Below are positions 5,118-63,020 of a stretch of 64,000 bases of DNA, in pieces (within the stretch, counting starts at the first letter, position 1; each line of letters opens with the position of its first letter). Made by a program: the position numbers and the translations under genes. Source of the stretch: an uncultured Alphaproteobacteria bacterium (lineage in GTDB: Bacteria; Pseudomonadota; Alphaproteobacteria; CAAHEQ01; UBA3637); assembly GCA_944391565.1 (NCBI GenBank), contig CALXUB010000028.1, forward strand, positions 30,738 to 94,737, given 5' to 3'. The notes under the pieces are model-generated. The model was not told where the DNA came from. It did no database searches and saw only the letters and a program-made list of their open reading frames with translations.

Positions 5118-5123
5118 TTTTAT

Positions 5124-6218: not shown

Positions 6219-6226
6219 TGTTTGTC

Positions 6227-7652: not shown

Positions 7653-7686
7653 CTTTATATAGAATCTTTTATTTTTTTAACCACTT

Positions 7687-21822: not shown

Positions 21823-22299
21823 ATGAAAATTCAAAAAGCTTATTTTGCAGCCGGTTCTTTTTGGGAAGTTCAAGCGTCTTATGAAGAAATAGAAGGTGTA
21901 CTTGCAACGCGCGTAGGGTATATGGGCGGATTTATGCCTTATCCCAAGCATCAAGATGTAGTCAAGGGGTTTACAGGACACGCGCAAACCGTGGAAGTTC
22001 TTTTTAACGAAGATGAAGTTTCTTATCGTGAACTGGCCGATTATTTTTTTGAGATACATAATCCGACAACGCTGAATTGCCAAGGACCTGATGAAGGAAC
22101 GGCTTTTCGTTCTGTTTTATTTTATTTAAATTTGGAACAAAAAACACAAGCTCTTCTAGCAAAAGATTTCTTTGATGCAGAGAATATTTATCATAAACCG
22201 GCTGTCACGCATATTCGTCCGGCGGATAAATTCTATATAGCCGAAGAAGAACACCAGTATTTTGTCGAAAAACATCCGGAGTTGCTCAGTTTTGGTTAA
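21823..22299 (+). CDS. Peptide methionine sulfoxide reductase MsrA-like protein with Ser replacing the catalytic Cys (GSFW instead of GCFW)
   Basis: Matches MsrA blocks (VGYMGG, GHAQTVEV, QGPDEGTAFRS), but the codon at the active-site position is TCT (Ser). Confidence 0.65.
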   Translation: MKIQKAYFAAGSFWEVQASYEEIEGVLATRVGYMGGFMPYPKHQDVVKGFTGHAQTVEVLFNEDEVSYRELADYFFEIHNPTTLNCQGPDEGTAFRSVLFYLNLEQKTQALLAKDFFDAENIYHKPAVTHIRPADKFYIAEEEHQYFVEKHPELLSFG

Positions 22300-23570
22300 A
22301 GGCTTTTTTTGTTTTTGTTAATTAAGGCATCCATTCTGGCTCTGCTTTCTTGAAAGGCGTCGTTTGTCGTTTGCTGCAGGTTTTTTAACCGATCTTGGAT
22401 CGACATTTCCTTTGATTTTTTCTTACCTTCTAAGTACAGCCTTGCATCAGAGCCTTGATCAAAAGCGTTTTGGAGTGCTGTATGCCCGTGTTTGTCCAAA
22501 AGCTCCGGATCGGCCCCTTTTTCCAGCAGCAAAGGGATCCCTTCTGGATAATAATTAACGGCGACATGAAGCGGATATTGTCCCTTTTTATTCGGTTCAT
22601 TGATTTGAAAGCCCGGAACGCTGATAACAATGTTCATAAAATCCTGATTTTTGGTGTAAATTGCTTGATCAAGCAAACTTTCTCCATCAGGATCAAAAAA
22701 ATCCTGTGCTGCGCCGCGTCGCATCAAATCAGCGCCTTTTTCAAAGTAATTTTGCAGATTTTTTTCTCGATTATCAGGATTTTTATAAACATCATTAAAC
22801 GACATCACATGTTTTTTCATTTGTTTATTTAAGGCCTCTATTTCCGGAGGAACAGCAGGCTTCGGCGGTTCTTCAGAATGGGGTTGTTCTTGCTGTTCCG
22901 AGACAGGCTTTGTTGGCTGCCGTTTCGGGAATAAGTCAGCATTTCCGTATTTTTGCGCTAAATCAAAGGCATTTTCTCCCTTTGGGGTCAGCCAATCCGT
23001 GCGGGCTCCGTGTTGAAGCAAAAGCCAAATTGTGTCTCGTTCTTTATTTCGGATAGCTTCGTATAGCGGGGTCATTCCGAAACGATTGACAGCATTGATA
23101 TCAAAGCGTTTTGTGTTTAATAAGATATGTAAAGCTTCTGCTTGACCACAACGGGCAGCCAAATGAAGAGGCGTTTCTTTGTCCTTCGTCAGATTATTGG
23201 GATTTACAAGAGGTGCCAGTTCTTGAACAGCACGGGTGTGTCCGACTAAAGCCGCTTGATGAAGGAGGGTATATCCCGGATTCTTTTTAAAGAAGTCTTT
23301 CAATTTGGTTTGGGTTGACACGTTCGGATCCGCACCTTGACGAACAAAAGCGAGCGCTCTGTTAAAATAAGCATCTTTATCTGTGTACAGAAAATTCATA
23401 TCCGTTGATTGTTCCAACAGATCCTGGAGGGCTGATGTTTGTTTGGAATCGTTAACAGTCTTTCGGACTTGATGAAAAATATTTGTTATTTTCCCCAACA
23501 TGCTTTTATCCTCTTTTTGTTTTTTATGCTTCATTATAGCATGTTTTGTGTTGTTTTTCAATAAAAACAA
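22296..23570 (-). CDS. Ankyrin-repeat protein
   Basis: Several ANK repeats (TPLHLAARCGQAEALHILL, MTPLYEAIRNKERDTIWLLLQHGA, YPLHVAVNYYPEGIPLLLEKGADP); basic C-terminus. Confidence 0.7.
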   Translation of the reverse strand: MFLLKNNTKHAIMKHKKQKEDKSMLGKITNIFHQVRKTVNDSKQTSALQDLLEQSTDMNFLYTDKDAYFNRALAFVRQGADPNVSTQTKLKDFFKKNPGYTLLHQAALVGHTRAVQELAPLVNPNNLTKDKETPLHLAARCGQAEALHILLNTKRFDINAVNRFGMTPLYEAIRNKERDTIWLLLQHGARTDWLTPKGENAFDLAQKYGNADLFPKRQPTKPVSEQQEQPHSEEPPKPAVPPEIEALNKQMKKHVMSFNDVYKNPDNREKNLQNYFEKGADLMRRGAAQDFFDPDGESLLDQAIYTKNQDFMNIVISVPGFQINEPNKKGQYPLHVAVNYYPEGIPLLLEKGADPELLDKHGHTALQNAFDQGSDARLYLEGKKKSKEMSIQDRLKNLQQTTNDAFQESRARMDALINKNKKSL

Positions 23571-30091: not shown

Positions 30092-30847
30092 ATGATTAAA
30101 GATGAAATAACAGATAAAATAATTTGTGGTGATTGTTTGGAGATAATGAAAACCATCCCTTCAGAGTTTTGTGATTTGGTAGTTACATCTCCACCATATA
30201 ATTTGAAAAACTCCACAGGAAATGGTATGAAAGACGGAAGAGGTGGAAAATGGCAAAATGCCGCTTTAGTAAACGGATACCAAAATTATGATGACAATAT
30301 GCCCCATGAAGAATATGTATCATGGCAAAGACAATGTTTAACGGAAATGATGAGGATTATAAATGATAAAGGAGCAATCTTTTATAATCATAAATGGCGT
30401 GTACAGAATGGATTATTACAAGATCGACAAGATATTGTATCTGGTTTTCCGGTTAGGCAAATTATTATATGGAAGAGAAAGGGAGGTATTAACTTTAATC
30501 CTGGTTACTTTCTTCCAACGTATGAAGTTATTTACGTGATAGCAAAGCCAAATTTCAAACTTCGGCGAGGAGCAAATGCTCTTGGTGACGTTTGGGAATT
30601 TACTCAAGAAATGAACAACAATCATCCAGCCCCCTTTCCTGTAGCTCTTATTGATAGAATTATATCTTCAACAGACGCTAATATCATTTTAGACCCTTTT
30701 ATGGGAAGCGGAACAACTGCAATTGCGGCTATAAAAAATGGAAGGCACTATATAGGCATAGAGATATCACAAGAATATGTAAATTCTGCAAATGAACGGA
30801 TAGAAAATGAATTACTAAGATATACACCTTTATTAAAGTTTGGATAA
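30092..30847 (+). CDS. Type II DNA methyltransferase (SPPY motif; N4-cytosine or N6-adenine, beta class)
   Basis: DLVVTSPPYN catalytic motif and FMGSGTT SAM motif; AT-rich cassette. Confidence 0.75.
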   Translation: MIKDEITDKIICGDCLEIMKTIPSEFCDLVVTSPPYNLKNSTGNGMKDGRGGKWQNAALVNGYQNYDDNMPHEEYVSWQRQCLTEMMRIINDKGAIFYNHKWRVQNGLLQDRQDIVSGFPVRQIIIWKRKGGINFNPGYFLPTYEVIYVIAKPNFKLRRGANALGDVWEFTQEMNNNHPAPFPVALIDRIISSTDANIILDPFMGSGTTAIAAIKNGRHYIGIEISQEYVNSANERIENELLRYTPLLKFG

Positions 30848-31646
30848 AGTAATGATGAACGTACCAATTTACACAAAAGAAAAACTAATAGAAAAGCTGT
30901 TAGAAATAAAACAGTTGGGCTGGATTGTGGGTGGCCGCCCTGGAAATGATGGTAGTGTTGGTAATACTTTAGAAGATTTGTTAGGAATAAAAGAAAATAA
31001 TCTTCCCATACCAAATGCTGCGGAATGGGAATTGAAATGTCAAAGACTACAAGGCTGTTCCAGAACAACAGGATTTCATATAGAGCCATCACCCCGAGCA
31101 TTACATCTTGTTCCGAATTTATTATTAAAAAGTTATGGCTGGCCTCATAAAGAAGCAGGCAAAAAATATCCATCATCTGAGATGAGTTTCAGAATGACAA
31201 TGAATGCTTTGAGTAGAACTGACAGGGGATTTGGAATAGTAATTAATGATGCAGAAAGGAAAATTGAGGTATCTTTTGATGCCGAATCTGTTCATCCACG
31301 ACATAAGGAATGGTTAGAAAGTGTGGATAAAAGGATCGGATTAAAAGAACTAAATCCTCAACCATATTGGGGATTTGATGATTTATTCCATAAAGTTGGT
31401 AATAAATTGCATAACTGTTTTTATATCCTTGCAGATTGTAAACAAGAAAATGGGATTGAATATTTTCAATATAATAAGATATTTAAGCTATCTACTTTTG
31501 ATGAAACCAAATTAATAGATGCGATTAGAAACGGCGTATTAATTGCAGAATTTGATGCAAGAACCGGTCATAATCATGGCACGAAATTTAGGTTTAAAAA
31601 AGGCGATTTACCAAAATTGTATAAATACGTTGAAATAATCGAATAA
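30840..31646 (+). CDS. Putative type II restriction endonuclease, MvaI/BcnI-like, cognate to the upstream methyltransferase
   Basis: Overlaps the methyltransferase stop; size and partner type fit MvaI/BcnI-like systems; family assignment rests on weak recall. Confidence 0.4.
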   Translation: MDKVMMNVPIYTKEKLIEKLLEIKQLGWIVGGRPGNDGSVGNTLEDLLGIKENNLPIPNAAEWELKCQRLQGCSRTTGFHIEPSPRALHLVPNLLLKSYGWPHKEAGKKYPSSEMSFRMTMNALSRTDRGFGIVINDAERKIEVSFDAESVHPRHKEWLESVDKRIGLKELNPQPYWGFDDLFHKVGNKLHNCFYILADCKQENGIEYFQYNKIFKLSTFDETKLIDAIRNGVLIAEFDARTGHNHGTKFRFKKGDLPKLYKYVEIIE

Positions 31647-42312: not shown

Positions 42313-43053
42313 ATGGAAAAATTTGTCAAACAATATGATGTTCGAAGTTATGAATGTGATAAGGACAGCCGTTTAAGACTGTTGACAATTTTTAATTTGA
42401 TGCAGGATATGGCGGATACGCATGCCGATTTGATGGGGGTGGGATATGATGCTTGCTTTCAAAAGGGAATCGGTTGGGTCGGGGGCAACTATCATCTTCG
42501 GATTCATAAACTGCCGAAATGGCGAGAAAAAATTATTTTAAAAACATGGCCGACTGCAAAAACTTTTGTGACGGGAATTCGGGACTTTGAAGCGCTTAAT
42601 GAAACCGGTTCTATCCTGTTTCAAGCTTCCAGTCAATGGGTTCTGATTGATTTGACCAAAGGACGACCTGTAGCGGTTGCTAAAAACTTAGGAAACTATG
42701 AGCTTTTGCCGGAAAGAGCAATTGAAACACAGTTTTCAACGCCTCCGTTGCCTGAACGAACGGATTTTGAAAAAAAGTTTTTTGTCCGTTATGATGACAT
42801 TGATATGAATAATCATGTTAACAATGCCGTTTATCCGGTATGGGCGGCAGAAGCTGTCCCGCCGGCTTTTAAGGCATGTCATGATGTGGCTGAGTTGGAA
42901 GTTTCTTTCAAAAAGCCGGCTTTGTCAGGGGATGTGGTTTTAATCGAAACGCAAATAGATGATAAAACAACCCGTCATTTAATCAAAAGCGAGACGAACG
43001 GAACAGTTTTTGCTCAGGTTGCCATTCAATGGACAGTTCATTCTGAAGACTGA
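42313..43053 (+). CDS. Acyl-ACP thioesterase (FatA/B-like hotdog pair)
   Basis: Family blocks (YDVRSYECD..., NNHVNN). Confidence 0.55.
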   Translation: MEKFVKQYDVRSYECDKDSRLRLLTIFNLMQDMADTHADLMGVGYDACFQKGIGWVGGNYHLRIHKLPKWREKIILKTWPTAKTFVTGIRDFEALNETGSILFQASSQWVLIDLTKGRPVAVAKNLGNYELLPERAIETQFSTPPLPERTDFEKKFFVRYDDIDMNNHVNNAVYPVWAAEAVPPAFKACHDVAELEVSFKKPALSGDVVLIETQIDDKTTRHLIKSETNGTVFAQVAIQWTVHSED

Positions 43054-46000
43054 GCTTTTCTTTTGGGATGAAAACGATAAAATATAACGGGTGTCACCAA
43101 TAGATTTAAAATGGTAGATGTTAACAATCCGAAAGCAATGACAACTGCTGCCGGATAAAGGATTTCTTTCCCGGCGGTGTTGCCTGCAACGATCAACGGC
43201 ACAAATCCGATAATAGAGGTTAAAGTTGTCATCATAACGGGTTCTAAACGCTCCTTTGTCGTATTAATCAATTCTTTTATTGTCAGTCTTTTTCCTTTCT
43301 CGGCTTCTTTATGCAAATATAACTCCATTAGCAAAATGCCGTTACGAATGGCAATGCCTACCAAAGCAATTAAACCGACAATACTGGCGATTGAAATGAC
43401 GCGAGAGGTTAGAAATAATCCGATTACGGCTCCCATTAAAGAAAGCGGAAGAGTAATCATCAACTGCAAGGCCAAATTTAAACTTTTAAAGTTAATGTAA
43501 AGAGCGCCGAACATAATCGTCAAGGACAGCAAAGCCAAAATAAAAATATGACGAGCTGCTGTTTGTTGGCTTTCAAATTGGCCGTCTATTTTCCAAAAAG
43601 TATTTTCAGGGAACGATATTTCATTCTCGATACGTTTTTCAATGTTTTGTGCTGTTTTTACTAAGTCTCGTCCAATAATATTTGCTTGAATAACCAAGCG
43701 ACGACTGCCGTTTTCTCGAGCAATTTCACTCGGACTTTTGGTTAAGTAAATTTCACTGATAGTCGATAGAGGAACAAAATAGCCTTTAACCGTTTCAACA
43801 GGGAGTTGTCCTAAAACGTCAGGTGTGATGTTAAGAGCATCTTTGAACATTAAAACAAGATCATAACTTCGTTCATCTTCCTGGATTTGTGCGATTTTTC
43901 GACCAGCCAAGGCTGTCTCGATGCTGTTAACGGCTGTGCCGGTCTGCACACCATGACGAGCTGCTTTGTCTCGATCAATTTGAATGTGTATTTCGGGGAT
44001 CAAAATTTGCATGTCTTGTGTGATGTCTGTTATCTCCGGCATTTCTTTTAAAATGTGTTCGATTTGCTCTGCCGTTTTACGAAGAGCTTCGGTGTCAGAT
44101 CCGAATAATTTGATAGCTAATTGAGACTGTGATCCAGAAATAATAAAATCGATCCGGTGTGAAATGGGTTGCCCGATGTTGACAAAAATACCGGGAATAT
44201 TCAGTTTTTCTCGAATTTCTGACATTAGTTCTTCTTTGGTTTTCTGTGTTTTTGGTTTAAGCTCAACTTCAATTTCACTGATGTGAACGCCTAGCGCATG
44301 TTCATCCAAATCTGCTCTGCCTGTTTTTCGTCCGGTTGAAACAATATCAGGAATGGAAAGTAGAGCCTTTTCTGCCAGTTGTCCAATCCGATTGCTTTCT
44401 GTCAGGTTTGTTCCGGGAGCCGAAGCTACAGCTATATTAAAACTGCCTTCGTTAAAAGGAGGCAGAAATTCACGTCCCATTTCGAGTGCCGCACAAACAA
44501 GAAGCACAAAAAATATTCCTAAAGCAATCAAAACACCTTTTGTGTGATAAAAACAAAAACGCAATCCTTTGTCTTGTGCTTTTTTGAGAATACGGACAAT
44601 CCATGCATCATGAGGACGGCCTAAGGATTTTAACGAAGGCAGCAGGTAAGCTGATAAAGCCGGTGTTAAAGTCAATGCGACAACGGTTGACATCGTCATG
44701 GACAGAATAAAGGCAATCGCTAACGGTGTAAAGATTTTTCCTTCAATCCCTGATAGAGCAAAAAGCGGAATAAAAACTAAGAAAACCAAAACAGTAGAAA
44801 AAATAATGGAGTTGCGAACTTCTTTTGATGCTTCAAAAACAACCTGCCAAACAGGGCGCGGGGTTTGACTGTGTTTATTTTCTTTAAGGCGTTTGTAGAT
44901 GTTTGTCACATCAACAATTGCATCGTCAACAAGCGAACCGATTGCCATAGCTAAACCGCCCAGCGTCATTGTGTTGATATTTAAACCGAATACGTCAAAG
45001 ACAATGGCCGTCATGATGAAAGAGGTCGGAATAACAGTTAAAATAATGGCGGTTGATCGAAAATTGACAAGAAATAAAAACAAGATAACGGCAATTAAAA
45101 TAGAACCACTCCATAAAGCTTCCGTGATGTTGTCAATGGCGCGCTGAATGAAGCGACTTTGTTTAAAAATATCTGCCGTCAAAATAACATTTTCAGGTAA
45201 GATTTTTTGTATTCTGCTCAATTCTATTTCCAACTGACGAGTCAGTGATAATGTATCTATACCGGGTTGCTTGGCAATACTGATTAAAACACCCGGATTA
45301 GCATTGATGCCGGCATCTCCGCGTTTGTTTATTTCAGGTGCTTCCCGAATATCGGCAATTTGTTCCAACGTAATACCAGGAGCATCTTTTCGAATTTCTT
45401 TAGCCAACACGATTTTTTTTAAGTCAGCGATTGTTTCCGGTCGTCCCAGGATACGAATTTGCTTTTCTGTCCAAGTTTCTTGTAAAAAGCCGGCCGTAGA
45501 GTTTAATCCGCTGTTTTGAAGGGATTGAATGACATCAGAAAGAGAGATGTTCATCAGTTGCATTTGGATAGGATCCAGCATAATTTGGTATTGCTTGATG
45601 TCTCCGCCAATCGTTGAAACGTTAGAAACGCCGGGAATACCCAACAACCGCTTTCGTATTAAATTATCTGCAATACTGCGTAGCTGCATGGAGGAAAAAG
45701 CATTATTTGACGAAAAAAGGCCCGCAATCATAACTTCTCCCATAATGGACGAAACAGGTCCCATCGCTATGCGTGTTCCGTCAGGTAAGGATTGTTGAAG
45801 AGTGCTCAATCGTTCATTGATAATTTGACGCGCTTTGAAAATGTCTGTATCCCAATTAAACTCGGCTTTAACTATGCCATAACCAACGTTAGCGGAAGAA
45901 GTCAGACGTGTGATGCCAGATGCTCCGTTGACAGCATTTTCAACGGGAATTAAAATCTGTTTTTCTATTTCCTCAACAGCTAGTCCTTCTGTTTCAATAA

Positions 46001-46148
46001 TCAAAGAAACGGTCGGTTTATTCAGATCCGGGAATACATCAACGGATAAATGAGCAGCCTTGTTATATCCGTAAAAAAACAATAACAAGTATGCACACAC
46101 AATAATGAGTTTGTATCTTAAAGAAAATTGAATAATTCGATCAAACAT
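43038..46148 (-). CDS. czcA: RND heavy-metal efflux pump, CzcA/CusA family
   Basis: 1036 aa, 12-TM RND architecture, N-terminal family signature. Confidence 0.8.
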   Translation of the reverse strand: MFDRIIQFSLRYKLIIVCAYLLLFFYGYNKAAHLSVDVFPDLNKPTVSLIIETEGLAVEEIEKQILIPVENAVNGASGITRLTSSANVGYGIVKAEFNWDTDIFKARQIINERLSTLQQSLPDGTRIAMGPVSSIMGEVMIAGLFSSNNAFSSMQLRSIADNLIRKRLLGIPGVSNVSTIGGDIKQYQIMLDPIQMQLMNISLSDVIQSLQNSGLNSTAGFLQETWTEKQIRILGRPETIADLKKIVLAKEIRKDAPGITLEQIADIREAPEINKRGDAGINANPGVLISIAKQPGIDTLSLTRQLEIELSRIQKILPENVILTADIFKQSRFIQRAIDNITEALWSGSILIAVILFLFLVNFRSTAIILTVIPTSFIMTAIVFDVFGLNINTMTLGGLAMAIGSLVDDAIVDVTNIYKRLKENKHSQTPRPVWQVVFEASKEVRNSIIFSTVLVFLVFIPLFALSGIEGKIFTPLAIAFILSMTMSTVVALTLTPALSAYLLPSLKSLGRPHDAWIVRILKKAQDKGLRFCFYHTKGVLIALGIFFVLLVCAALEMGREFLPPFNEGSFNIAVASAPGTNLTESNRIGQLAEKALLSIPDIVSTGRKTGRADLDEHALGVHISEIEVELKPKTQKTKEELMSEIREKLNIPGIFVNIGQPISHRIDFIISGSQSQLAIKLFGSDTEALRKTAEQIEHILKEMPEITDITQDMQILIPEIHIQIDRDKAARHGVQTGTAVNSIETALAGRKIAQIQEDERSYDLVLMFKDALNITPDVLGQLPVETVKGYFVPLSTISEIYLTKSPSEIARENGSRRLVIQANIIGRDLVKTAQNIEKRIENEISFPENTFWKIDGQFESQQTAARHIFILALLSLTIMFGALYINFKSLNLALQLMITLPLSLMGAVIGLFLTSRVISIASIVGLIALVGIAIRNGILLMELYLHKEAEKGKRLTIKELINTTKERLEPVMMTTLTSIIGFVPLIVAGNTAGKEILYPAAVVIAFGLLTSTILNLLVTPVIFYRFHPKRKAQSSE

Positions 46149-46867
46149 TACTCTATCTCCTCTTTTTGTGTCTGTCTATTGGTCGATGTTGTCACAAATT
46201 GTAATTGGTGAGCTCCTTGAGTGATAACTTTTTCGCCTTCTGATAAACCATGTATGATTTCAATAAGATCGCCTGATACGTGTCCGATGGCTACCGGTCG
46301 ACGTTCAAAATGATTTTCTTTTCGGATAAAAACATAGAAATTTCCTGCTTCTCCTTGAACTGCTTTTTGAGAAACCGCCAAGGCGTTTTCTTCTTCATCT
46401 AGCAAAATTGTCATTTCTCCTTTTAATCCTACGAAAGAAAAAGGGGGTGAGGTATTAAAGTTTGAATAAATGCTGAACATTCTGTTAGTTGTGTCAATTT
46501 CTTCATCTATTTCATAAACTTTTCCCGAGAGTGTTTTGTCTGGAGAAACATCTAATTTTATGATGGTATTCATTCCTTTTTCTATGATAAAAAGTTCTTT
46601 TCCCTCCATAATAAAACCTTGAGCAATTAGCTGTTCTGTTAATGGTGCATGTCGCAGTGTCATCGGAATAGTTATGGTTTTATATAAAGTATGTTTTTTG
46701 ACTTCTTCTTCTTTCAGTTGCAGATTGTGGATTTGAATATCTGTCAGATCAAATGAGGTACTGACTTGATTTCCGACAAAAGCAGAATCACCATGATCAT
46801 GTCCATTATGAGCTAAAGCAGGTATTGCCAAATAAATCAATGTGCATAAAATAAACAGTATTTTCAT
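46148..46867 (-). CDS. Short periplasmic adaptor (MFP/CzcB-like) with N-terminal His-rich segment
   Basis: Signal peptide, HNGHDHGDS, beta-barrel-like C-terminus; operon position. Confidence 0.55.
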   Translation of the reverse strand: MKILFILCTLIYLAIPALAHNGHDHGDSAFVGNQVSTSFDLTDIQIHNLQLKEEEVKKHTLYKTITIPMTLRHAPLTEQLIAQGFIMEGKELFIIEKGMNTIIKLDVSPDKTLSGKVYEIDEEIDTTNRMFSIYSNFNTSPPFSFVGLKGEMTILLDEEENALAVSQKAVQGEAGNFYVFIRKENHFERRPVAIGHVSGDLIEIIHGLSEGEKVITQGAHQLQFVTTSTNRQTQKEEIE

Positions 46868-48072
46868 TGAATATCCTCCAATCTTGAACCGATGTAAATT
46901 TCCAAAACCGCTTTTGCTTCATAAGCTTCTTTTAAAGCAAGCAATGCGGCCGTTTGAGCCGAAGTCCATTTTTCTTTGGCTTGCCAAACCACTAAAACAG
47001 AAGCTTCGCCTTTGTTGAAAGCTTCTTCTGTTTCAGCAATGCTTTTTTCGTAAAGCGGTAATATTTCCTTAAAATAAGTCTCAGCTCTTTGGGAGAGGCG
47101 TTGTGCTGTTTGATAATGATTTTTTATCAGTGTCTCAAAACCGACTTTTTCTAAGTTTCTCTGCTGCGTTTTTATCCATGCTTCTTCGGCTTTTAATGCT
47201 TTTATGCGGCCGTTGCTGTGATTCCACAGAGGAATTGTCAGCGTCAGTCCGGCTTGCCAACTATCTTGGTTTTCTTCATTGTCATACCCATATTTGATTT
47301 TAGGTTCTAAAATTGGGAAATAAGCATCTTGTTTGGCAATGGACAGCTTTTTGGCGGCTTGTTGTTCCTGTAAGTTTAACATATATTGGTAAGAGGGTTG
47401 GTTTTGTGCTGTTTCAAGGACTTGTTTAAGCGTAGCTTTTATCTGGATACGTGGCGGTGGTTCAAGGGTTAATTCATCATTTGAAAGCCCGATCTGTTGT
47501 CCAAAATCCAAAAATATTTTTTGCTTGTGCCATTTTTGAGCAGCAGCTTCTTCACGGACAGCCATTGTATCAGCCTTTAACAGAGCGGCTTCTGTTTTGG
47601 AAATACCATTACGGTTTAAAGAACGTGTCACGGTTTCATTAGCTTTCTCCAAATAGGCTTGATTGAGAAGAGTGTATTTTAATTCTTCTTGAGCCAAAAA
47701 AGTTTCGCAATAAAGCAGTGTTATCCGGTGATAAAGACGCAAAGCATCCAAGCGTTCCTCTTGCCTGTTCATTGTTTCTAATAGCTTTTTATAGTCAAAG
47801 CGGGTCAAGGTCAGATCTGATAAACGCAAAGGCTGTGTGAAGCTGATGTCTGACGAATGACTGTCAACATCATATTCCCACTCAAGCTCGGGACTGAGCA
47901 GTGCTGTATCGTCTGTCTCGGCGCCAAAGGTATTCAGTCTGTTTTTCTGTAATTCAGAGACGAACGGACTATGGATAAAAGCCGACGCCAAAGCTTTGTC
48001 AAGTGTTAATGTTTCGGCACAGATACCGAAAGGGAGGCTGCAAAACAGCCCTAAGATTATAAAAAAACGCAT
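46864..48072 (-). CDS. Outer membrane efflux protein (CzcC/TolC-like)
   Basis: 402 aa; signal peptide; OEP repeats. Confidence 0.65.
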   Translation of the reverse strand: MRFFIILGLFCSLPFGICAETLTLDKALASAFIHSPFVSELQKNRLNTFGAETDDTALLSPELEWEYDVDSHSSDISFTQPLRLSDLTLTRFDYKKLLETMNRQEERLDALRLYHRITLLYCETFLAQEELKYTLLNQAYLEKANETVTRSLNRNGISKTEAALLKADTMAVREEAAAQKWHKQKIFLDFGQQIGLSNDELTLEPPPRIQIKATLKQVLETAQNQPSYQYMLNLQEQQAAKKLSIAKQDAYFPILEPKIKYGYDNEENQDSWQAGLTLTIPLWNHSNGRIKALKAEEAWIKTQQRNLEKVGFETLIKNHYQTAQRLSQRAETYFKEILPLYEKSIAETEEAFNKGEASVLVVWQAKEKWTSAQTAALLALKEAYEAKAVLEIYIGSRLEDIQ

Positions 48073-48105: not shown

Positions 48106-48432
48106 TTAAAGAAAAGAACGAGGTGGTTTTTTTATTTTATAAATAAATGATAAAGAAAAAGATTTTACTTTCGGAGGCCGTTTAAAAATACTTACCGAAG
48201 CCTCAAAACGCTCTTGAATACTGGAAGTGGGCAAGAATGAAAAAGCATGGGTACAGAGGGAACAATCTTCGCAACAGCAAGTATGGTGTTGCTGATGCGG
48301 ACAGTCCGAAGGTGCAGTTATGGACAGAACAGTTGTCGGTTGAGTCGAATGAATATGTGTTAAGACGGACATTCCTAAAAAGGATGTCACAAAAGCCAAC
48401 AAAAACAAAAAAGATACAACAGCTTTTTTCAT
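48106..48432 (-). CDS. Small secreted Cys/His-rich protein (CzcI-like metal-binding/regulatory protein)
   Basis: CPHQQHHTCCCEDCSLCTH cluster; first gene of the efflux operon. Confidence 0.45.
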   Translation of the reverse strand: MKKAVVSFLFLLAFVTSFLGMSVLTHIHSTQPTTVLSITAPSDCPHQQHHTCCCEDCSLCTHAFSFLPTSSIQERFEASVSIFKRPPKVKSFSLSFIYKIKKPPRSFL

Positions 48433-48610
48433 AAAAGACATCTTAGCAATGATGGACTTCTTTTGTCAATATCAAAAAAGAGACTTTTAGATGATAATAA
48501 AAATGTTTTTATTGATTACTTGTAAACAGGTAAAAAATGTAAAAAAATAATATTTTTATTGCAATTTTTTATGAAATGTTTTAGGAAGAAGAAAAAGAGG
48601 AGATACGATC

Positions 48611-48927
48611 ATGCACGTCAGAAAGAAACAAGCTTGTATAAGTGCTTTCATCCCACTAGGGGGGAGGGGGGTCAATTTGGTCGCACATTATTAGAGACAT
48701 TGTCAGTTTTAGCCTTGTCAGGAATGCTGACATCGTTAGCATTAGCCGGGTTTGTTTACGCGCGAGCTAAGGTTGCGGCCAATCATATTTTAACGGATGT
48801 TTCATTAGCGTATGCCGAAGCGTTGCCCGAGACGCGGGAGAGCAATCGGTTTTATGAAATTTCTTTTACGACAGATTCACATTTAACGATACACACGGTC
48901 CGGACGGAAAGTTTTCTGACGGAATGA
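48611..48927 (+). pseudogene. Type IV pilin-like gene with interrupted G-tract (G6-A-G6). The ATG+RBS at 48611 is out of frame with the pilin-like body (ON with one fewer G).
   Basis: RBS GAGGAG 8 nt before the ATG at 48611; with the current tract the reading stops after 28 codons, while the next frame encodes ...GGQFGRTLLETLSVLALSGMLTSLALAGFVYARAKVAAN (pilin-like N-helix). Confidence 0.5.
48659..48671. repeat. G6-A-G6 tract preceded by CACTA (same flank as the G13 tract at 301-313)
   Basis: Read directly. Confidence 0.9.
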
Positions 48928-48933
48928 GCGGAT

Positions 48934-49776
48934 TTGGTTATTGTTGAGGATGTTCCCGAGCGTATTTGCCGGATATTGTTTGGGATGAACGGCGTGAACG
49001 GTCTGAGTCTTTTGTCAGAATCAGACGAGACATATGTTCCGTTTCCCGGGTGTGAGACTGGTTTGAACCGGATGATATTTTCTTTGAACGGAGAGGGGTC
49101 ATGTGATTGTCCTGCGCATGCGTCTTGTGAGCTGGACACGGGGTGTCATTGTGATTTCGGGTATGAAATATCTTCTGACGGGAGTTGTCAGGAGAAGAAC
49201 TGTCCTTCTGTTAAAGAGATTACGGAGATCACGGAAGAATATTGTTGTGAGAAGGCGAAAGGTGTTTGGGACGGTATAGTAGGTTGTGTTTGTCCCGAGG
49301 AAAGTTATTTTAATGGAACGTCCTGTGTTGCGTCGCAGGGTTTTTGTGTTTACAGTTATGAAGGACCGAGCGGCGGCGGATATTATTCAAATTGTTCATA
49401 TACCTTCAGTGAAACGGATGGCACGGCTTCGGTCGTTTCACGGGAAAGCTGTCCGTCTGGACAATATTGTATTTTAAAGTGGACGGACACGGATTGCGGC
49501 AGTGAGATCGAAGCCTCCGGCGCTTCGGTGATTTACGGTCGTTGTGCAACGCTGTCGACACATTACAGCCAATGTCGTCAATATGATGAAAATCTTGTTC
49601 CGACGGTTTCGGCCCTTCAAGGCTGCGGTTCAGACGAATATTGCCGATTAACTTGGTCGAGCGATACCTGCGACACGTTATCGGCCGAAGGAGCAGCTTT
49701 TATTTACGGAGTCTGCTTGGAACTCGCCAAGTCTTCTCCTATAACATGCCCGGTGGAAAAAGAAGAAGGAGTTTAA
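48934..49776 (+). CDS. Cys-rich EGF-like repeat protein, in frame with the upstream pilin-like ORF and separated from it by a single TGA
   Basis: 32 Cys in recurring CxC/CxxC spacing; no signal peptide of its own. Confidence 0.45.
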   Translation: MVIVEDVPERICRILFGMNGVNGLSLLSESDETYVPFPGCETGLNRMIFSLNGEGSCDCPAHASCELDTGCHCDFGYEISSDGSCQEKNCPSVKEITEITEEYCCEKAKGVWDGIVGCVCPEESYFNGTSCVASQGFCVYSYEGPSGGGYYSNCSYTFSETDGTASVVSRESCPSGQYCILKWTDTDCGSEIEASGASVIYGRCATLSTHYSQCRQYDENLVPTVSALQGCGSDEYCRLTWSSDTCDTLSAEGAAFIYGVCLELAKSSPITCPVEKEEGV

Positions 49777-49777
49777 G

Positions 49778-50164
49778 ATGAAAAAAATTTTTTTAATATT
49801 GTTTTTATTATTTTCGCTGAATGCCTATGGAGTTTGTAAAGAAGGGACAGAAATCACGGGTAAGAACGGTCATGTTTATTGTATGAGCAATGTCATTATG
49901 AACTGGTATACGGCATTTGCATGGTGTGATACGCAGGGGCGGACATTGGCGACGATGGAACAGATATGCGACATTGATGAAACGGAACGTTGGGATGGGA
50001 ATACTGGAGAAGGGAAGTGCTTGAACATGGTTGGAGCAGGTCTAAGTCGATGGGCTTGGTCGTCCATTCCCTCCGGCTCCACTTCCGCATTCCTCGTCAC
50101 TCTATCAACTGGAAATGTGACCAGCAGCATTCGTTCAAATACGTACAACGCCATCTGTTGGTAG
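49778..50164 (+). CDS. Secreted C-type-lectin-like small protein
   Basis: Signal peptide; WCDTQGRTLATMEQ and terminal CW resemble the CTLD fold; strong RBS. Confidence 0.4.
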   Translation: MKKIFLILFLLFSLNAYGVCKEGTEITGKNGHVYCMSNVIMNWYTAFAWCDTQGRTLATMEQICDIDETERWDGNTGEGKCLNMVGAGLSRWAWSSIPSGSTSAFLVTLSTGNVTSSIRSNTYNAICW

Positions 50165-50395: not shown

Positions 50396-50472
50396 GGGCG
50401 GTTAGCTCAGCTGGCTAGAGCATCTCGTTTACACCGAGAGGGTCAGGAGTTCGAATCTCTTACCGCCTACCA
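50396..50472 (+). tRNA. tRNA-Val (anticodon TAC)
   Basis: GGGCGGTTAGCTCAGCTGGCTAGAGCATCTCGTTTACACCGAGAGGGTCAGGAGTTCGAATCTCTTACCGCCTACCA. Confidence 0.8.
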
Positions 50473-57975: not shown

Positions 57976-58066
57976 GAAAAAAGGGAAAGCATAACTTTCC
58001 CTTCTCATTTTGTGGAATAATCCTTATTAACGGAAAGACCACACTCTTTTATCTGCTATAAAAGAT
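57976..58066 (-). ncRNA. Predicted tracrRNA: anti-repeat, AAUAAGG / AAAUGAGAA region and intrinsic terminator (GGGAAAGUUAUGCUUUCCC-U6)
   Basis: The + strand at 58027-58062 is 27/36 identical to the crRNA-sense repeat, so the minus strand pairs with it; minus-strand terminator hairpin at 58001-57983 plus T6; candidate -10 TATAAT on the minus strand at 58075-58070. Confidence 0.6.
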
Positions 58067-58137
58067 ACAATTATATTGCAATATTATCTAAACTCTGTCA
58101 ATATATTTTTTATTCTAATATGAAAAAAGAGGTCACT

Positions 58138-61100
58138 ATGAGCTATACGTTAGGATTGGACTTAGGAAATACATCTATCGGATGGGTACTTTTAAAAACA
58201 AACGATGCGGAAATAACGGGAATTGAAGCCATGGGCGTCCGTATTTTCCCGGATGGTCGTGAAGCTCAGTCTAAAGAGCCTTTAGCTGTCGCACGCAGGA
58301 TGGCCCGTTCGATGCGCCGTTCTTTGGACAGACGTCTGCTGCGTCAGGAAAAACTGATGCGCTTTTTGATTGAGAACGGCCTTTACCCTGCAAATGAAGC
58401 AGATAGTAAGAAATTGGTTCAATTAAATCCCTATGCCTGTCGTGATAAAGCTTCCCGTGAAGAAGTTAATCCTTTTGAAGTGGGGCGAGCATTATACCAT
58501 ATTTGTCTTCGTCGCGGTTTTCTCAGCAACAGAAAAACAGACAAAAAAGACAAAGAAAGCGGCAGCATGAAAACAGCCATTCATGTATTGGAAGAAAAAA
58601 TAGCTCAATCAGGAGCGCAAACGCTGGGGCAATATCTGTATTTGCTTCAGCTTCAGGATGATCATGCGCAGCTGCGTGTCAGTGCGCAGACGGCGGGAAC
58701 AAAAAACGTATACAATTTCTATCCCTCTCGAGCCATGTATGAGCGGGAGGTTGATCAAATTTTAATGCATCAATCATATTTGTCGGCGGCCCAGAAAAAT
58801 GAAATAAAAGAAATTATTTTCTATCAACGGCCCTTGAAAAAGCCTCAAGTTGGCTTTTGCACTTTAGAAGAAAAAGAACGTCGGGCGCCCAAATCCAGTA
58901 TTTTGTTTCAATATTTCAGGTTGTTGCAAAAACTGAATGATTTAGAATATGTTTTCTTGGATACAGGGGAATGTTTAACAGATGAAAACCGTCAAGTTAT
59001 TAAAGAAATGCTGTTGAAATCAAAAGAAGTTTCTTTTGAAACGATTCGTAAAAAATTAGGCGTTTCGTATCGTTTTTCGCATGAAGACGAAAAAACATCC
59101 AAACTGACGGGACATGAAATCAATGCGAAAATGAGTTCTAAAAAGGCTTTCGGATCTGCTTGGTTTGAACTGTCCGGACGGGAACAAGAACACCTTGTCA
59201 TGCTTTTGTCCAATCTGGAGAAAGAAGATGTTCTTGAAAAATATTTAAAACAGACTTATCCGGATTTAAGCGATGAGCAAGTCGAATATCTGCTAGGACT
59301 TTCTTTTCCAGAAGGATATGGCCATTTAAGTCGACGAGCAATGTTAAAAATAATTCCGTTTATGGAAAAAGGCTTATCTTATTATGATGCTTGTGAAGCG
59401 GCCGGTTATCACGAAACGGAACAGCCGCACGGAGAGCTGTTGCCTTATTATGGGGAGATTTTGTATAAAAAATTATTGGGCGGAAGTTTTAATCCATCCG
59501 ATCAAAATACACCGGAGCTTTATTATGGAAAAATTAATAATCCGACAGTTCATATCGGTCTGAACCAACTTCGTTTGCTTGTCAATGAACTAATAGCCCA
59601 ATATGGGAAGCCGACACAAATTGTGGTAGAACTGGCGCGTGAATTAAAGATGTCTCAAAAAGACTTGAATGAACTGAATCGAAGACAAACGGCCGATAGA
59701 AAGGAAAACGAGAAAATCAATCTTTTTCTGAAAGAACAAGGATTGCCTGAAAGCTATGAAAATCGAATGCGGTATAAATTGTGGACGGATTTGGCTGAAA
59801 ATCCCTTGGAGCGCTGTTGTCCTTTCTGCGGTCGCACAATCGGTGAAGGGGATATTTTCTCGCCGGCTTTTGAAACAGAACATTTACTGCCATTTTCTCG
59901 TTCATTTAATGACGGACGGAATAATAAGGTTTTAGCTTGTAAGGAATGCAATAACTTTAAGAAAAACCAAACACCTTGGGAGGCATTTCATACTCATGTG
60001 GGAGATAAATATGATTGGGAAAATATCTTGGCCCGCGTTTCAAAAATGAATAACAGAAAAGCATGGCATTTTACGAAAGAAGCTGCCGAAAGTTTGGATG
60101 AAAACACGGTCTTAAATCGTTTTTTGAATGATACAAAGTATTTGTCCAAAATGGCAAAAGCTTATTTGGAATATATTTGTCCGGTTCGAACAATTCCGGG
60201 ACAATTAACCTCTAAAATGCGCAAGATTTGGCAATTTAATGACTTGATCGGCGAAACGGATGAAAAAGATCGCACGGAGCATCGACATCATGCGATTGAT
60301 GCCTTAACGGTGGCATGCACGACACGCAGTACACTACAGGCTTTTTCAACACATTCAAAAGAAAGCTATGAACGACAGCATAAAATTTTGGCCGGCAGTT
60401 TAGTTCCTTTTAAGGCTTTTAATCGGGCAGAAATGAAACAACTTTTGGAAAATATGGTGATTTCCTATAAACCTAATCATAAAGATGCTCAAAAAGCTGT
60501 TTCCCAAGGCAAAACGGCAGGGGCTTTGCATGATGAAACAAACTACGGAAAAGTGATGCATTTAAACGATGACGGTTCTGTTGAAAGCCGCTATGTGGTT
60601 CGAAAGCCGCTAATCAGTTTAATTGAAGATAAAAATATTGAAGAAATCGGTGATCGAAAAATCCGTCATGAACTGCAGACATTGCTTGCCGGCAAAAGTA
60701 AAGAGGAACGTAAAAAATTATTGGAGGCCTACAGCGAGGAAAAGAATATCAGAACGGTTCGCGTCCATATCATTAAAAAAGATGATGCTATGATCGGCAT
60801 TTGTCGGAAGGGACAGGAAAAACCCTATCGTTATGTCGCCAGCGGTAATAATTATTGTATGGATATTTATTGTCCGAATCGAGGGAAAAATAAAGGGGTT
60901 TGGTGTGGAGAAGTCATCTCTAATTATGAGGCTCATCAAAAAGGTTTCCAGCCTCAGTGGCGGCAAAAAGAGCCGGAGGCAAAACTGATTATGCGTCTGT
61001 TTATCGACGATATGGTCGCATATGAGGAAAACGGACAAACGGAAATCCGACGCGTGAAAAAAATGGATAAAAGTGTTAAAGTTTATCTGCGTTCTCATTT

Positions 61101-61227
61101 GATAGCAGCAGAAGAAGCAGATAAATTATCTTGGGCAGCTTCTCCGCGACAGCTTCAGTTAAAAAATGCCCGGAAAATAAAAGTTGATGTTTTGGGACGG
61201 GTTTTTGACCCGAAAAGTTCCAAATGA
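58138..61227 (+). CDS. cas9: Cas9, type II-C, about 1029 aa (ORF track begins at 58120; the ATG at 58138 has an AAGAGG RBS)
   Basis: RuvC-I LGLDLGNTSIGW; Arg-rich bridge helix RRMARSMRRSLDRRLLRQ; HNH ETEHLLPFSRSFNDGRNNKVLACKECNNFKKNQTP; RuvC-III HHAIDAL. Confidence 0.92.
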   Translation: MSYTLGLDLGNTSIGWVLLKTNDAEITGIEAMGVRIFPDGREAQSKEPLAVARRMARSMRRSLDRRLLRQEKLMRFLIENGLYPANEADSKKLVQLNPYACRDKASREEVNPFEVGRALYHICLRRGFLSNRKTDKKDKESGSMKTAIHVLEEKIAQSGAQTLGQYLYLLQLQDDHAQLRVSAQTAGTKNVYNFYPSRAMYEREVDQILMHQSYLSAAQKNEIKEIIFYQRPLKKPQVGFCTLEEKERRAPKSSILFQYFRLLQKLNDLEYVFLDTGECLTDENRQVIKEMLLKSKEVSFETIRKKLGVSYRFSHEDEKTSKLTGHEINAKMSSKKAFGSAWFELSGREQEHLVMLLSNLEKEDVLEKYLKQTYPDLSDEQVEYLLGLSFPEGYGHLSRRAMLKIIPFMEKGLSYYDACEAAGYHETEQPHGELLPYYGEILYKKLLGGSFNPSDQNTPELYYGKINNPTVHIGLNQLRLLVNELIAQYGKPTQIVVELARELKMSQKDLNELNRRQTADRKENEKINLFLKEQGLPESYENRMRYKLWTDLAENPLERCCPFCGRTIGEGDIFSPAFETEHLLPFSRSFNDGRNNKVLACKECNNFKKNQTPWEAFHTHVGDKYDWENILARVSKMNNRKAWHFTKEAAESLDENTVLNRFLNDTKYLSKMAKAYLEYICPVRTIPGQLTSKMRKIWQFNDLIGETDEKDRTEHRHHAIDALTVACTTRSTLQAFSTHSKESYERQHKILAGSLVPFKAFNRAEMKQLLENMVISYKPNHKDAQKAVSQGKTAGALHDETNYGKVMHLNDDGSVESRYVVRKPLISLIEDKNIEEIGDRKIRHELQTLLAGKSKEERKKLLEAYSEEKNIRTVRVHIIKKDDAMIGICRKGQEKPYRYVASGNNYCMDIYCPNRGKNKGVWCGEVISNYEAHQKGFQPQWRQKEPEAKLIMRLFIDDMVAYEENGQTEIRRVKKMDKSVKVYLRSHLIAAEEADKLSWAASPRQLQLKNARKIKVDVLGRVFDPKSSK

Positions 61228-62150
61228 CCGGACAGATTTTGGAAATAGCAACAGATAATAAGCATTTGTCCGCCAAAGACGGATTTATCGTCATTTCGGA
61301 AGGACAGGTCGAGTTGGGCCGTATTCCGATTGACGCCGTTGAAGCCGTAGTTGTTTCTGCGCATGGCATCACTTACAGTCATTCTTTTTTGGTGCGCTTG
61401 TCAGAGAATAACATTCCGTTTGTGGCTTGCAATCAAAAGCACTTTCCCGTTTCTTATCTGCTTCCTTTAGAGGGACATTATAAGCAAGGCTCTGTGATGG
61501 ATGCTCAGCTTCAAGCAAATCTACCGCTTAATAAAAGGTTGTGGCGAGACTTAGTGAAAGCAAAAATTGCTATGCAAATCAGCGTTTTAACACATTATCA
61601 GAAGCCTGTGCAACGTTTAGAGTATTTATTGAAATCCGTCAAATCGGATGATAGTGAAAATGCAGAAGGTCAGGCAGCCCGTTTTTACTTTCAAGCATTG
61701 TTCGGAGACAATTTTATACGCGATCGTGAGGCGGATGGTATCAATGCCATGCTCAATTACGGATATACGGTTCTGAGGGCCTTTATCGCGCGTTATTCGA
61801 CGGCTGCCGGTTTGCATCCGACAATGGGGATTCATCATCGGAACGCTTTGAACGGATTTCGCTTAGCCGACGATTTGATGGAACCTTTTCGGCCGATTGT
61901 TGACTTTGCTGTTTATGAGATGATAACAAAGGGAGAAACGGCACTGACTTCAACCGTGAAGCAAAGCTTGGTTAATGTATTTTCAGGAAATATACCCGCT
62001 TTTTTGGGACAAACTCAAATAACAATCTGTATGCAGAATCTGTGTATTTCTTTGGCTAAAGTATATTTAAAAGAACGGGAGGAACTTGATTTGCCATATT
62101 CACCGCAACCATGGGATTGGGAGGCTTTAAATGCCTTCATCGCCGTATAA
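61224..62150 (+). CDS. cas1: Cas1
   Basis: 308 aa; overlaps the cas9 stop (ATGA); position. Confidence 0.85.
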   Translation: MTGQILEIATDNKHLSAKDGFIVISEGQVELGRIPIDAVEAVVVSAHGITYSHSFLVRLSENNIPFVACNQKHFPVSYLLPLEGHYKQGSVMDAQLQANLPLNKRLWRDLVKAKIAMQISVLTHYQKPVQRLEYLLKSVKSDDSENAEGQAARFYFQALFGDNFIRDREADGINAMLNYGYTVLRAFIARYSTAAGLHPTMGIHHRNALNGFRLADDLMEPFRPIVDFAVYEMITKGETALTSTVKQSLVNVFSGNIPAFLGQTQITICMQNLCISLAKVYLKEREELDLPYSPQPWDWEALNAFIAV

Positions 62151-62460
62151 TCAAATGTGGATGATGGTTATGTTTGATTTGCCGGTCGGAACGGCAAAAG
62201 AGCGTAAAAAAGCCACGGCTTTTCGAAAGGGACTCTTGGATCTTGGCTTCGAAATGTCACAATTTTCAGTTTATGTACGTTTTTGCGGCGACAGGCAGAA
62301 AACAGAACCTTATGTTCGAAAAATTAAGACGTTAATTCCGGAAAATGGGAGCGTCACGTTATTATTTTTTACGGATCGACAATTCTCCGATATTATTAAC
62401 TTTTCGAATCGAAAACGTAAAAAATTAAAGGAAAATCCGGCTCAGTTATCTCTGTTCTAG
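62131..62460 (+). CDS. cas2: Cas2
   Basis: 109 aa; overlaps cas1; MWMMVMFDLP start typical of Cas2. Confidence 0.85.
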   Translation: MPSSPYNQMWMMVMFDLPVGTAKERKKATAFRKGLLDLGFEMSQFSVYVRFCGDRQKTEPYVRKIKTLIPENGSVTLLFFTDRQFSDIINFSNRKRKKLKENPAQLSLF

Positions 62461-62468
62461 AGAGCTTT

Positions 62469-62497
62469 TGGGAGGATATTTTCTTATATCCTCCTTT
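62469..62497 (+). terminator. Rho-independent terminator after cas2 (GGGAGGATAT-TTTCTT-ATATCCTCC-TTTT)
   Basis: Read directly. Confidence 0.65.
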
Positions 62498-62521
62498 TAA
62501 AACAACGACTTAACTCAGTGA

Positions 62522-63020
62522 GATTATAGCAGATTAAAGAGTATGGTCAAGCCGTAACAATTCGTTGTCTACATAATTTTTTACTTCTATTATAGCAGAT
62601 TAAAGAGTATGGTCAAGCCGTAACACTATAATTTCAAAGTATTGGGATTTTGCTATTATAGCAGATTAAAGAGTATGGTCAAGCCGTAACTTATCAATGT
62701 GTTTATTTACATCAACATTAATTATAGCAGATTAAAGAGTATGGTCAAGCCGTAACTTGTTTATCCCTGTTGTTATATAGCTTTTTATTATAGCAGATTA
62801 AAGAGTATGGTCAAGCCGTAACATCACCTAAAATAATATTGAAAGCTTTTTTATTATAGCAGATTAAAGAGTATGGTCAAGCCGTAACTTTTCAAAACCG
62901 TCAAATTCAAGCCGAGAAATTATAGCAGATTAAAGAGTATGGTCAAGCCGCAACGCAACACGCGAGATCATTGACATCGTACAGATTATAGCAGATGAAG
63001 GAATATCTTGTTGACGAAAG
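62522..63020 (-). CRISPR. CRISPR array: 36-bp repeat (+ strand ATTATAGCAGATTAAAGAGTATGGTCAAGCCGTAAC), 7 spacers of 30-31 bp, repeat 7 variant (GCCGCAAC), degenerate 8th repeat at 62985. The crRNA-sense repeat is the reverse complement and ends in an extended -10 TGCTATAAT.
   Basis: Repeat starts 62522, 62589, 62655, 62721, 62787, 62853, 62919, 62985 counted directly. Confidence 0.95.

Follow-up and report, generated by a model that had tools for sequence, protein, structure and literature searches.

Genes of large minor pilins are in some bacteria linked to genes of small Sec-exported pilus partners, as with CofB–CofJ of enterotoxigenic Escherichia coli (ETEC) and TcpB–TcpF of Vibrio cholerae. 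Homopolymeric tracts located in promoter spacers are known for porA (poly-G) and opc (poly-C) of Neisseria meningitidis and for fim2 and fim3 (poly-C) of Bordetella pertussis, and many contingency genes of Neisseria and Campylobacter carry the tract in the 5′ coding region. Modular pilins, such as PilB (vWA) and PilC (lectin) of Streptococcus sanguinis, CofB of ETEC and TcpB of V. cholerae, combine a small pilin module with a bulky C-terminal graft and are expected to be low-abundance or tip subunits mediating binding (PMC8179133). In a class III signal, a hydrophilic leader with Gly or Ala as its last residue precedes a stretch of about 21 residues, most of them hydrophobic, in which position +5 is Glu (PMC8179133). 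The present study concerns a stretch of 64,000 nucleotides (nt) from an uncultured alphaproteobacterium (assembly GCA_944391565.1, contig CALXUB010000028.1, positions 30,738 to 94,737), hereafter the window, whose own numbering and plus strand are used below unless stated otherwise. The region 48571–50164 of the window is read here, with a probability of about 0.7, as a two-gene cassette comprising a decayed modular pilin-like, cysteine-rich gene (gene 1), split by a TGG-to-TGA change, and an intact gene, ORF3, encoding a protein with a lectin fold.

Organisation of the cassette and the ancestral reading frame

The open reading frames (ORFs) 48559–48927 (122 amino acids, aa) and 48934–49776 (280 aa) lie in one frame, and only the TGA codon 48925–48927 and two sense codons stand between them. 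The second ORF ends with TAA at 49774–49776; one nucleotide beyond it, at 49778, is the ATG of ORF3 (49778–50164, 128 aa), with the Shine-Dalgarno sequence AAGGAG at 49766–49771. An earlier reading, made without database searches (the sequence-only reading), had described two same-frame ORFs separated by TGA with a signal-peptide gene 1 nt downstream, and had remarked that the cysteine-rich ORF has no signal peptide of its own; the arrangement is seen in both the sequence and the ORF list, and the 280-aa ORF has neither a hydrophobic N-terminal segment nor a signal peptide.

A search with the fused translation of the two ORFs found 17 homologues, and the full-length ones are single proteins of 365–568 aa that cover 91–94% of the fusion. 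The orthologous loci have a sense codon in place of the TGA: all five close contigs (L002, L010, L011, L012 and L013) read TGG, and the alignment column contains R, Q or W in more distant homologues, and never Cys. The five are metagenome contigs whose identity to the window is 97–100% in the first two-thirds of gene 1 and 65–90% in its 3′ repeats. No relative was found that keeps two separate genes with the stop. Since the homologues are single proteins covering nearly the whole fusion and the five close relatives read TGG, the comparison indicates that the two ORFs are one ancestral gene, cut in this strain by a single G-to-A transition. The cut falls after the first 81 residues following the predicted cleavage site, and the cysteine-rich part is left without an export signal.

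The pilin-like N-terminal module

The N-terminus encoded in the window (...GGQFG↓RTLLETLSVLALSGMLTSLALAGF, where the arrow marks the predicted cleavage site) has the composition of a class III signal, with a hydrophilic leader ending in Gly, a hydrophobic stretch and Glu at +5. In the sequence G↓RTLLE, the Gly codon is located at 48679–48681 and the codon for Glu(+5) at 48694–48696; position +1 is occupied by Arg. All full-length homologues share the motif Q-x-G↓R-(T/S)-(L/M)-(L/I)-E and the hydrophobic helix that follows it, with Gly(−1) and Glu(+5) conserved. The pilin-like module as a whole (48679–49053), which the stop codon splits, consists of G↓RTLLE, the α1 helix and an α/β head with conserved Cys residues encoded at 48967–48969 and 49051–49053.

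Comparison of the family profile with solved pilins gave matches to Geopilin 9egp (E = 6e-4), 7tgg (E = 1.4e-3) and PilA 8tj2 (E = 0.026), all of them confined to the N-terminal helix, with Gly(−1) and Glu(+5) aligned. AlphaFold2 modelling was conducted for an intact close relative, P0025, which is 90% identical to the window protein, using an alignment of 20 sequences; the model contains a helix at residues 2–50 followed by the strands of a β-sheet (pLDDT, the predicted local distance difference test, 50–84). A Foldseek search with the whole model, which is of low confidence, found no significant pilin match, and the other matches (kinases etc.) had E > 0.4 and are meaningless. The Pfam scan of the window gene 1 protein revealed no match at E ≤ 1, including the N-terminal methylation motif (PF07963/IPR012902); N_methyl is present below the threshold in relatives (P0015, 19.7 bits against a cut-off of 21.2; L008b, 15.6 bits), and NCBIfam gave weak hints of GspH and ComGE alone. 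A profile of the N-terminal module, in turn, matches more than 5,000 proteins, many of which are pilin-sized and begin with G↓RSM(I/V)EMLGVLAIIGVLS; Pfam N_methyl, Bundlin or PilS_N domains are present in a few of these relatives, and the match from one source is named PulG pseudopilin. Judging from these sequences, Arg at +1 is a trait of a large, little-studied pilin group. The pilin-like N-terminus proposed in the sequence-only reading is thereby upheld by the profile match to Geopilin and PilA, by the sub-threshold N_methyl scores of relatives and by the families found in the superfamily. A survey of the literature on RF32 gut Alphaproteobacteria found nothing relevant to the pilins of this lineage.

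The alternative that survives best, and which is nevertheless improbable, is that the N-terminus is an uncleaved signal-anchor and that the family consists of periplasmic or cell-envelope proteins tethered to the inner membrane, not of filament subunits. Such proteins would agree with the atypical Arg at +1 (prepilins usually have Phe or Met), with N_methyl scores below the Pfam threshold and with lengths of 365–568 aa, which are large for pilins. They would also agree with the genes around the copies, near none of which filament machinery was seen. No prepilin peptidase, assembly ATPase or secretin was present among the 30 window ORFs scanned with Pfam (about a dozen window ORFs of at least 100 aa, mostly in a glycosyltransferase cluster, were outside the scan), and neither these ORFs nor the flanking housekeeping genes, read by eye, contained machinery for type IV pili or for type II secretion. 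The sequences around related loci likewise showed none; beside a tandem pair of small pilin genes in a related metagenome-assembled genome (MAG), there are cell-division and ATP-synthase genes and a gene for a TPR/GT41 protein, and no filament machinery. On the other side, the invariant Gly(−1) and Glu(+5), the long α1 helix and β-sheet head of the model and the disulfide pair are hallmarks of pilins, and many pilin-sized relatives (130–240 aa) have the same N-terminus, some of them with Bundlin or PilS_N. Large modular minor pilins are, moreover, well documented (PMC8179133). The assignment of the N-terminal module to pilins is therefore preferred to a signal-anchor.

The tandem pair belongs to L016 (10001–12523), where two 135-aa pilin genes with the N-terminus G↓RSMIEML are followed by the TPR/GT41 (O-GlcNAc-transferase-like) gene, whose product may glycosylate pilins. 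Further pilin-like genes with the N-terminus G↓RSM(I/V)EML adjoin cassettes in L008 (1421–3052), L006 (1666–2508) and L004 (6180–6700).

The in-frame stop codon

TGA is an ordinary stop codon here, since it terminates 9 of the 40 confident window genes and Trp encoded by TGG is present at a normal 1.1%. The stops of the 40 genes are TAA (31) and TGA (9), with no TAG. An alternative genetic code, in which TGA would encode Trp or Gly, was considered and ruled out: apart from the nine genes that stop at TGA, ORFs of up to 1,036 aa are free of this codon.

An error of sequencing or assembly, with the gene intact (TGG) in the organism, has a small probability. Every related contig reads TGG, no second independent assembly with TGA was found, and the 280-aa product is not on record, a similar 280-aa call (P0024) arising from a T7 frameshift instead; consensus substitution errors, however, are rare, and since three other lesions, spread over many samples, show that this gene is often disrupted in the lineage, a real nonsense allele is unsurprising.

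Programmed recoding, in which Trp or selenocysteine would be inserted at the TGA to give full-length protein in a regulated amount, is less probable still. Low-level readthrough of UGA by near-cognate Trp-tRNA occurs in bacteria; the ancestral codon here is that of Trp, and the downstream frame is open to the normal C-terminus. Yet TGA is conserved in no relative, the equivalent residue is Trp in the five closest ones and Arg, Gln or Trp in the distant ones but never Cys, the codon is a normal stop elsewhere in the window, the same gene has plain frameshifts in sister strains, and the stop stands in a TGA-G context without a conserved element downstream. The fusion, for which the sequence-only reading had offered a nonsense pseudogene or readthrough, thus stands as the former, given TGG in the relatives, and not as the latter. 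Hardly credible is a functional split into a short pilin and a cytoplasmic cysteine-rich protein begun at TTG 48934, since, although this TTG is 7 nt after the stop and reinitiation is conceivable, the truncation would remove half of the pilin head together with its two conserved Cys residues, a 24-Cys repeat protein without an export signal would be unlikely to fold in the cytoplasm, and no relative keeps the arrangement.

Decay of gene 1, its start codon and leader tract

The nonsense allele, which is the preferred explanation of the TGA, is accompanied by different lesions in sister strains. A 1-nt deletion near window position 49015 was found in L002, L010 and many members of the 43-sequence P0004 cluster, and it is visible as N-terminal fragments (131 or 164 aa) and C-terminal ones (234 or 269 aa); L013 contains a T6-to-T7 insertion near 48915, and P0016 contains a further frameshift. 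Of the 15 members listed for the P0004 cluster, just two are full-length, namely P0026 (401 aa), called from the in-frame ATG, and P0025 (368 aa), from contig L011. The 5′ region of L011 (positions 1–110, compared with window 48500–48680) is entirely different up to the Gly↓Arg cleavage site and encodes a short leader, MERG↓RTLLE. This contig begins with GGG followed by TATGTT, as though a promoter poly-G had been the breakpoint. The 1-nt deletion is shared by both 5′ types, being present in P0018 and P0030, which suggests either that gene conversion has homogenised two loci or that the alleles are recombinant. Taken together, the sequences indicate that the lineage is losing gene 1, not recoding it.

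Two start codons come into question. ATG 48611–48613 has a good ribosome-binding site (Shine-Dalgarno GAGGAG, 48597–48602) and is not in the pilin frame; it opens a 27-aa ORF ending at TAG 48692–48694, and it would join the pilin frame only with one G more or two G fewer in the tract described below. ATG 48571–48573 is in the pilin frame, has no ribosome-binding site and is used by gene callers in sister contigs (P0026, P0030). The ribosome-binding sites of family members are comparable to that of ATG 48611, and the only strain single-nucleotide polymorphism upstream of the tract, which is one data point, is synonymous in the ATG 48611 frame and non-synonymous in the other. The ribosome-binding site and this synonymous substitution suggest that ATG 48611 was the original start, and it is probably the ancestral one.

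The leader-coding region contains an interrupted homopolymer, G6AG6, at 48659–48671 (GGGGGGAGGGGGG), which the window, L010 and L012 share unchanged. There are six runs of at least six G or C in the 64-kb window, and two of them are the adjacent runs of this tract; because two of the six adjoin each other, a decayed G13 fits better than chance, and G6AG6 is probably a decayed G13 contingency tract. Its counterpart in a paralogue (L004:6221) is an uninterrupted G12 at the equivalent position of the leader. The sequence-only reading had supposed that the locus is gated by slipped-strand mispairing, which does not apply to the window copy, where the tract is interrupted, has no uninterrupted homopolymer of about eight or more bases and shows no length polymorphism among the three strains; it would hold for the paralogues only, with their G10–G13 tracts in promoter spacers or leader. 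A possible sequence of events is that the gene originally started at 48611, that the G-to-A interruption locked the tract at an out-of-frame length and that the silent gene then gathered lesions. The window copy of gene 1 is most likely a non-functional pseudogene.

The cysteine-rich module

The pilin head is followed by an EGF-like cysteine segment (49102–49203, CDCPAHASCELDTGCHCDFGYEISSDGSCQEKNC), assigned at the level of a pattern, by a cysteine-rich middle region (49204–49449) and by two four-Cys repeats of about 50 aa each, after which come CPVE and the TAA codon (49450–49776). The middle region contains, according to the alignment, one copy of a short Tyr/Gly-rich repeat, Y-E-x-P-S-G-x-G-Y-Y-x-x-C-x-Y-T, which is present in one to four copies in homologues. 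The two four-Cys repeats (CPSGQYCILKW...IYGRC and CGSDEYCRLTW...IYGVC) are 42% identical, and homologues have two to five of them; the region of these repeats is the most divergent part of gene 1 between strains (70–85% nucleotide identity). No tandem DNA repeats of note were found within gene 1, and the protein repeats have diverged.

The PROSITE pattern EGF_2 describes six Cys residues with C-x-C-x2-[GP]-[FYW]-x4-8-C. The window sequence CHCDFGYEISSDGSC satisfies a six-Cys pattern of this type (C-x-C-x2-G-Y-x7-C), and C-x-C-D-F-G-Y is invariant in the family. Pfam EGF families gave no match at E ≤ 1 for the window protein or four homologues, and a profile of the segment found nothing in the PDB at E ≤ 10; an hhalign comparison with the EGF_Teneurin repeats of the pilin-like protein L008:1421–3052 gave a probability of 79% over 21 columns. 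In the P0025 model, pLDDT is about 50–60 over this segment and below 40 for nearly all of the module from residue 180 onward. An EGF-like domain, as proposed in the sequence-only reading, is consequently plausible but unproven: the cysteine pattern and the hhalign match favour it, but profile searches against Pfam and the PDB and the poor AlphaFold model do not.

The neighbouring pilin-like protein of L008 (1421–3052), from a related MAG, contains Pfam-validated EGF_Teneurin/EGF_2 repeats after a Gly/Ser linker. Another pilin-like gene adjoining a cassette shows weak, sub-threshold Pfam matches to furin-like and lustrin-like cysteine repeats.

The lectin-fold protein ORF3

ORF3 starts with MKKIFLILFLLFSLNAYG↓VCKEG, and residues 1–18 plausibly form a Sec signal peptide. 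The structure predicted for ORF3 (pLDDT 89.5) has the α/β fold of C-type-lectin-like domains, and such domains make up all 50 of the 50 matches listed by Foldseek against the PDB; the nearest structural neighbours are bacterial adhesin domains. The model thus supports a compact C-type-lectin-like fold, and the signal-peptide protein with a C-type-lectin-like pattern that the sequence-only reading had recognised at this place is borne out. Its further suggestion of eukaryote-like folds serving host interaction is not supported as stated, the structural neighbours being bacterial.

ORF3 has no match to Pfam Lectin_C or to any other Pfam family, and the sole related NCBIfam match, LIC_10572_fam (E = 1e-5), is far under its cut-off. 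The search for homologues found 53 proteins of 125–140 aa, none with a Pfam domain. An exact-sequence look-up placed ORF3 itself on a single 938-bp contig. Their alignment contains six conserved Cys residues, a conserved N-terminal half and a highly variable C-terminal third. The motifs associated with Ca2+ and sugar (EPN or QPD; WND) are present neither in the ORF3 sequence nor in the family alignment, and membership of the fold does not imply sugar binding.

The possibility was also considered that a diversity-generating retroelement targets the C-terminal half of ORF3, which is hypervariable; it was prompted by the lectin fold, a classic target of such elements, and by variable residues mostly of the NNY-codon kind. 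It was rejected: the window contains no template repeat and no second copy of the 3′ ends of ORF3 or gene 1, and the substitutions are not A-restricted, the differences between strains being confined to no particular bases or codon positions.

Related cassettes and their poly-G tracts

The relatives of the cassette are found in MAGs of uncultured Alphaproteobacteria, each of which has two to four copies, placed at different sites of the genome and in many cases at the end of a contig. In all related loci for which downstream sequence is present, an ORF3 homologue lies directly 3′ of the pilin-like gene. A G10–G13 run between TTGACA and a −10-like hexamer precedes family genes in five contigs, which represent three loci. 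The arrangement is TTGACA-N6-G11-TAGAGT in L003 and TTGACA-N6-G11-TATCAT in L004 (spacer of 17 nt in both), TTGACA-N7-G13-TATCAT in L014 and L015, which represent the same locus as L004 (20 nt), and TTGACA-N6-G10-TAGAGT upstream of another pilin-like gene in L008 (16 nt). L005, and also L008 upstream of an ankyrin gene, have TTGACT-N2-G12-TATGGT, with a spacer of 14 nt, or of 19 nt to the overlapping TATACT/TATAAT; in L007, a G13 is directly followed by TATAGC, which is not canonical, and the second pilin-like gene of L004 has a coding tract, G12, within its in-frame leader. At the locus common to L004 and L014/L015, the tract is G11 in the former and G13 in the latter, and the adjacent non-G bases of the spacer differ too. 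As far as the promoter sequences can tell, the poly-G arrangement of the paralogues is the classic design of a contingency locus.

The identity between strains is mosaic: it is 97–100% in the first two-thirds of gene 1 and at the junction of genes 1 and 2, and falls to 65–85% in the repeats at the 3′ end of gene 1 and in the second half of ORF3. This mosaic identity suggests recombination among alleles or paralogues. The family as a whole belongs to no Pfam family and has no name in any source; it combines a modular pilin adhesin with a probably homopolymer-switched promoter.

The ankyrin-repeat gene of L008 (3248–4277), in a related MAG, is preceded by TTGACT-ct-G12-tatggTATAAT, so that genes other than pilin-like ones also have poly-G promoters in this lineage. 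No poly-G promoter tract precedes the ankyrin gene of the window (22296–23570, minus strand).

Interpretation

The ancestral product of gene 1 would have comprised a leader, G↓RTLLE with a hydrophobic α1 helix, a small disulfide-bonded pilin head and a grafted cysteine-rich module. In intact copies, a prepilin peptidase would cleave the protein, which would then be exposed on a type IV filament as one of its minor or tip subunits; binding may be the role of the cysteine-rich module and the lectin-fold partner, and individual paralogues would be turned on and off by slippage of the poly-G in their promoter spacer or leader. A broader proposal is tentative and, taken as a whole, rather unlikely. 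It envisages a multi-copy system of surface variation in human-gut Alphaproteobacteria, made of cassettes under the separate control of a poly-G tract in each promoter spacer or leader, each with a pilin-anchored cysteine-rich adhesin and its own small lectin-fold partner, which would be exposed at the filament tip or released there (like CofJ and TcpF), with alleles recombined around a conserved junction and the window copy being lost.

Several points speak against the two-gene cassette interpreted in this way, in addition to the atypical +1 residue with its sub-threshold N_methyl and the lack of a prepilin peptidase, assembly ATPase and secretin among the scanned ORFs. The TGA is supported by one assembly and could be a base-call error; if the start were ATG 48571, G6AG6 would be in frame and the TGA alone would inactivate the gene; the structure of the cysteine-rich module was not predicted by AlphaFold2, and its function is a guess; and the differences in poly-G length are differences between strains, not within one population.

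Locally, what could have been a recoding event becomes an ordinary nonsense allele. For the family, the outcome is a set of undescribed cassettes that combine a pilin-type anchor with Arg at +1, cysteine-rich modules with variable repeats and an obligatorily linked lectin-fold protein. The recurrent, independent inactivation in different human samples hints at selection against expression, or at relaxed selection after the tract was locked.

Other features of the window

The cassette is flanked on one side by an RND efflux operon (43038–48072, minus strand) and on the other by tRNA-Val (50396–50472), beyond which are HU, Lon, ClpX and ClpP. The RND operon is headed, divergently from the cassette, by an ORF (48106–48441, minus strand) for a 111-aa Cys/His-rich protein with a signal peptide and a weak DUF6769 match, possibly a metal-binding periplasmic component.

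Near the window start (301–316, minus strand), an ORF for a family-2 glycosyltransferase, which continues beyond the window start, begins with a TTG directly followed by 13 consecutive G (C13 on the minus strand); the ORF is in frame at the G13 length (LPPPPLVTVVTATLN...) and, by its sequence, looks like a phase-variable glycosyltransferase in a polysaccharide cluster with several GT2 genes (684–9719). A restriction-modification pair, composed of an N6_N4 methylase and an MvaI/BcnI-family endonuclease (30092–31646, GC content 0.33–0.36), adjoins tRNA-Thr and is probably a small mobile insertion. The region 58030–63020 contains a type II CRISPR-Cas system with Cas9 (58120–61227), Cas1 (61224–62150), a probable Cas2 (62131–62460), assigned by position and size alone, an array of at least seven repeats with a 66-nt period (62523–63020) and a tracrRNA-like anti-repeat (58030–58065).

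Comparison with known systems

The paralogues resemble porA, opc, fim2 and fim3 in having G10–G13 exactly between the −35 element TTGACA and the −10 element, with spacers of 16–20 nt, and their second type, with the tract in the 5′ coding region, corresponds to the contingency genes of Neisseria and Campylobacter. Unlike in those systems, the hosts are uncultured gut Alphaproteobacteria, the window tract is decayed and interrupted, and we infer the switching of the paralogues from their sequences. The C-type-lectin-like domains that ORF3 resembles include those of the Bdellovibrio fibre tip Bd2740 (8oks), the C-terminal domain of Legionella Lcl (8q4e), intimin and invasin, with an identity of just 13–21%; in these proteins, the domain forms the tip of a fibre or autotransporter-like adhesin, whereas ORF3 is a free-standing secreted protein of 110 aa.

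Gene 1 shares with the modular pilins the design of a pilin module plus a graft, with the class III signal and a predicted α1 helix and β-sheet head, but its graft is an array of cysteine-rich repeats without a Pfam signature, its +1 residue is Arg, it is known here from genes alone and its window copy is broken. The cassette has the same linkage as CofB–CofJ and TcpB–TcpF; here, likewise known from genes alone, the partner has a lectin fold and is encoded immediately downstream in every paralogous cassette. If confirmed, the family would represent a new architecture among modular pilins, and a little-known lineage of commensals would possess contingency loci of the kind seen in Neisseria and Bordetella.

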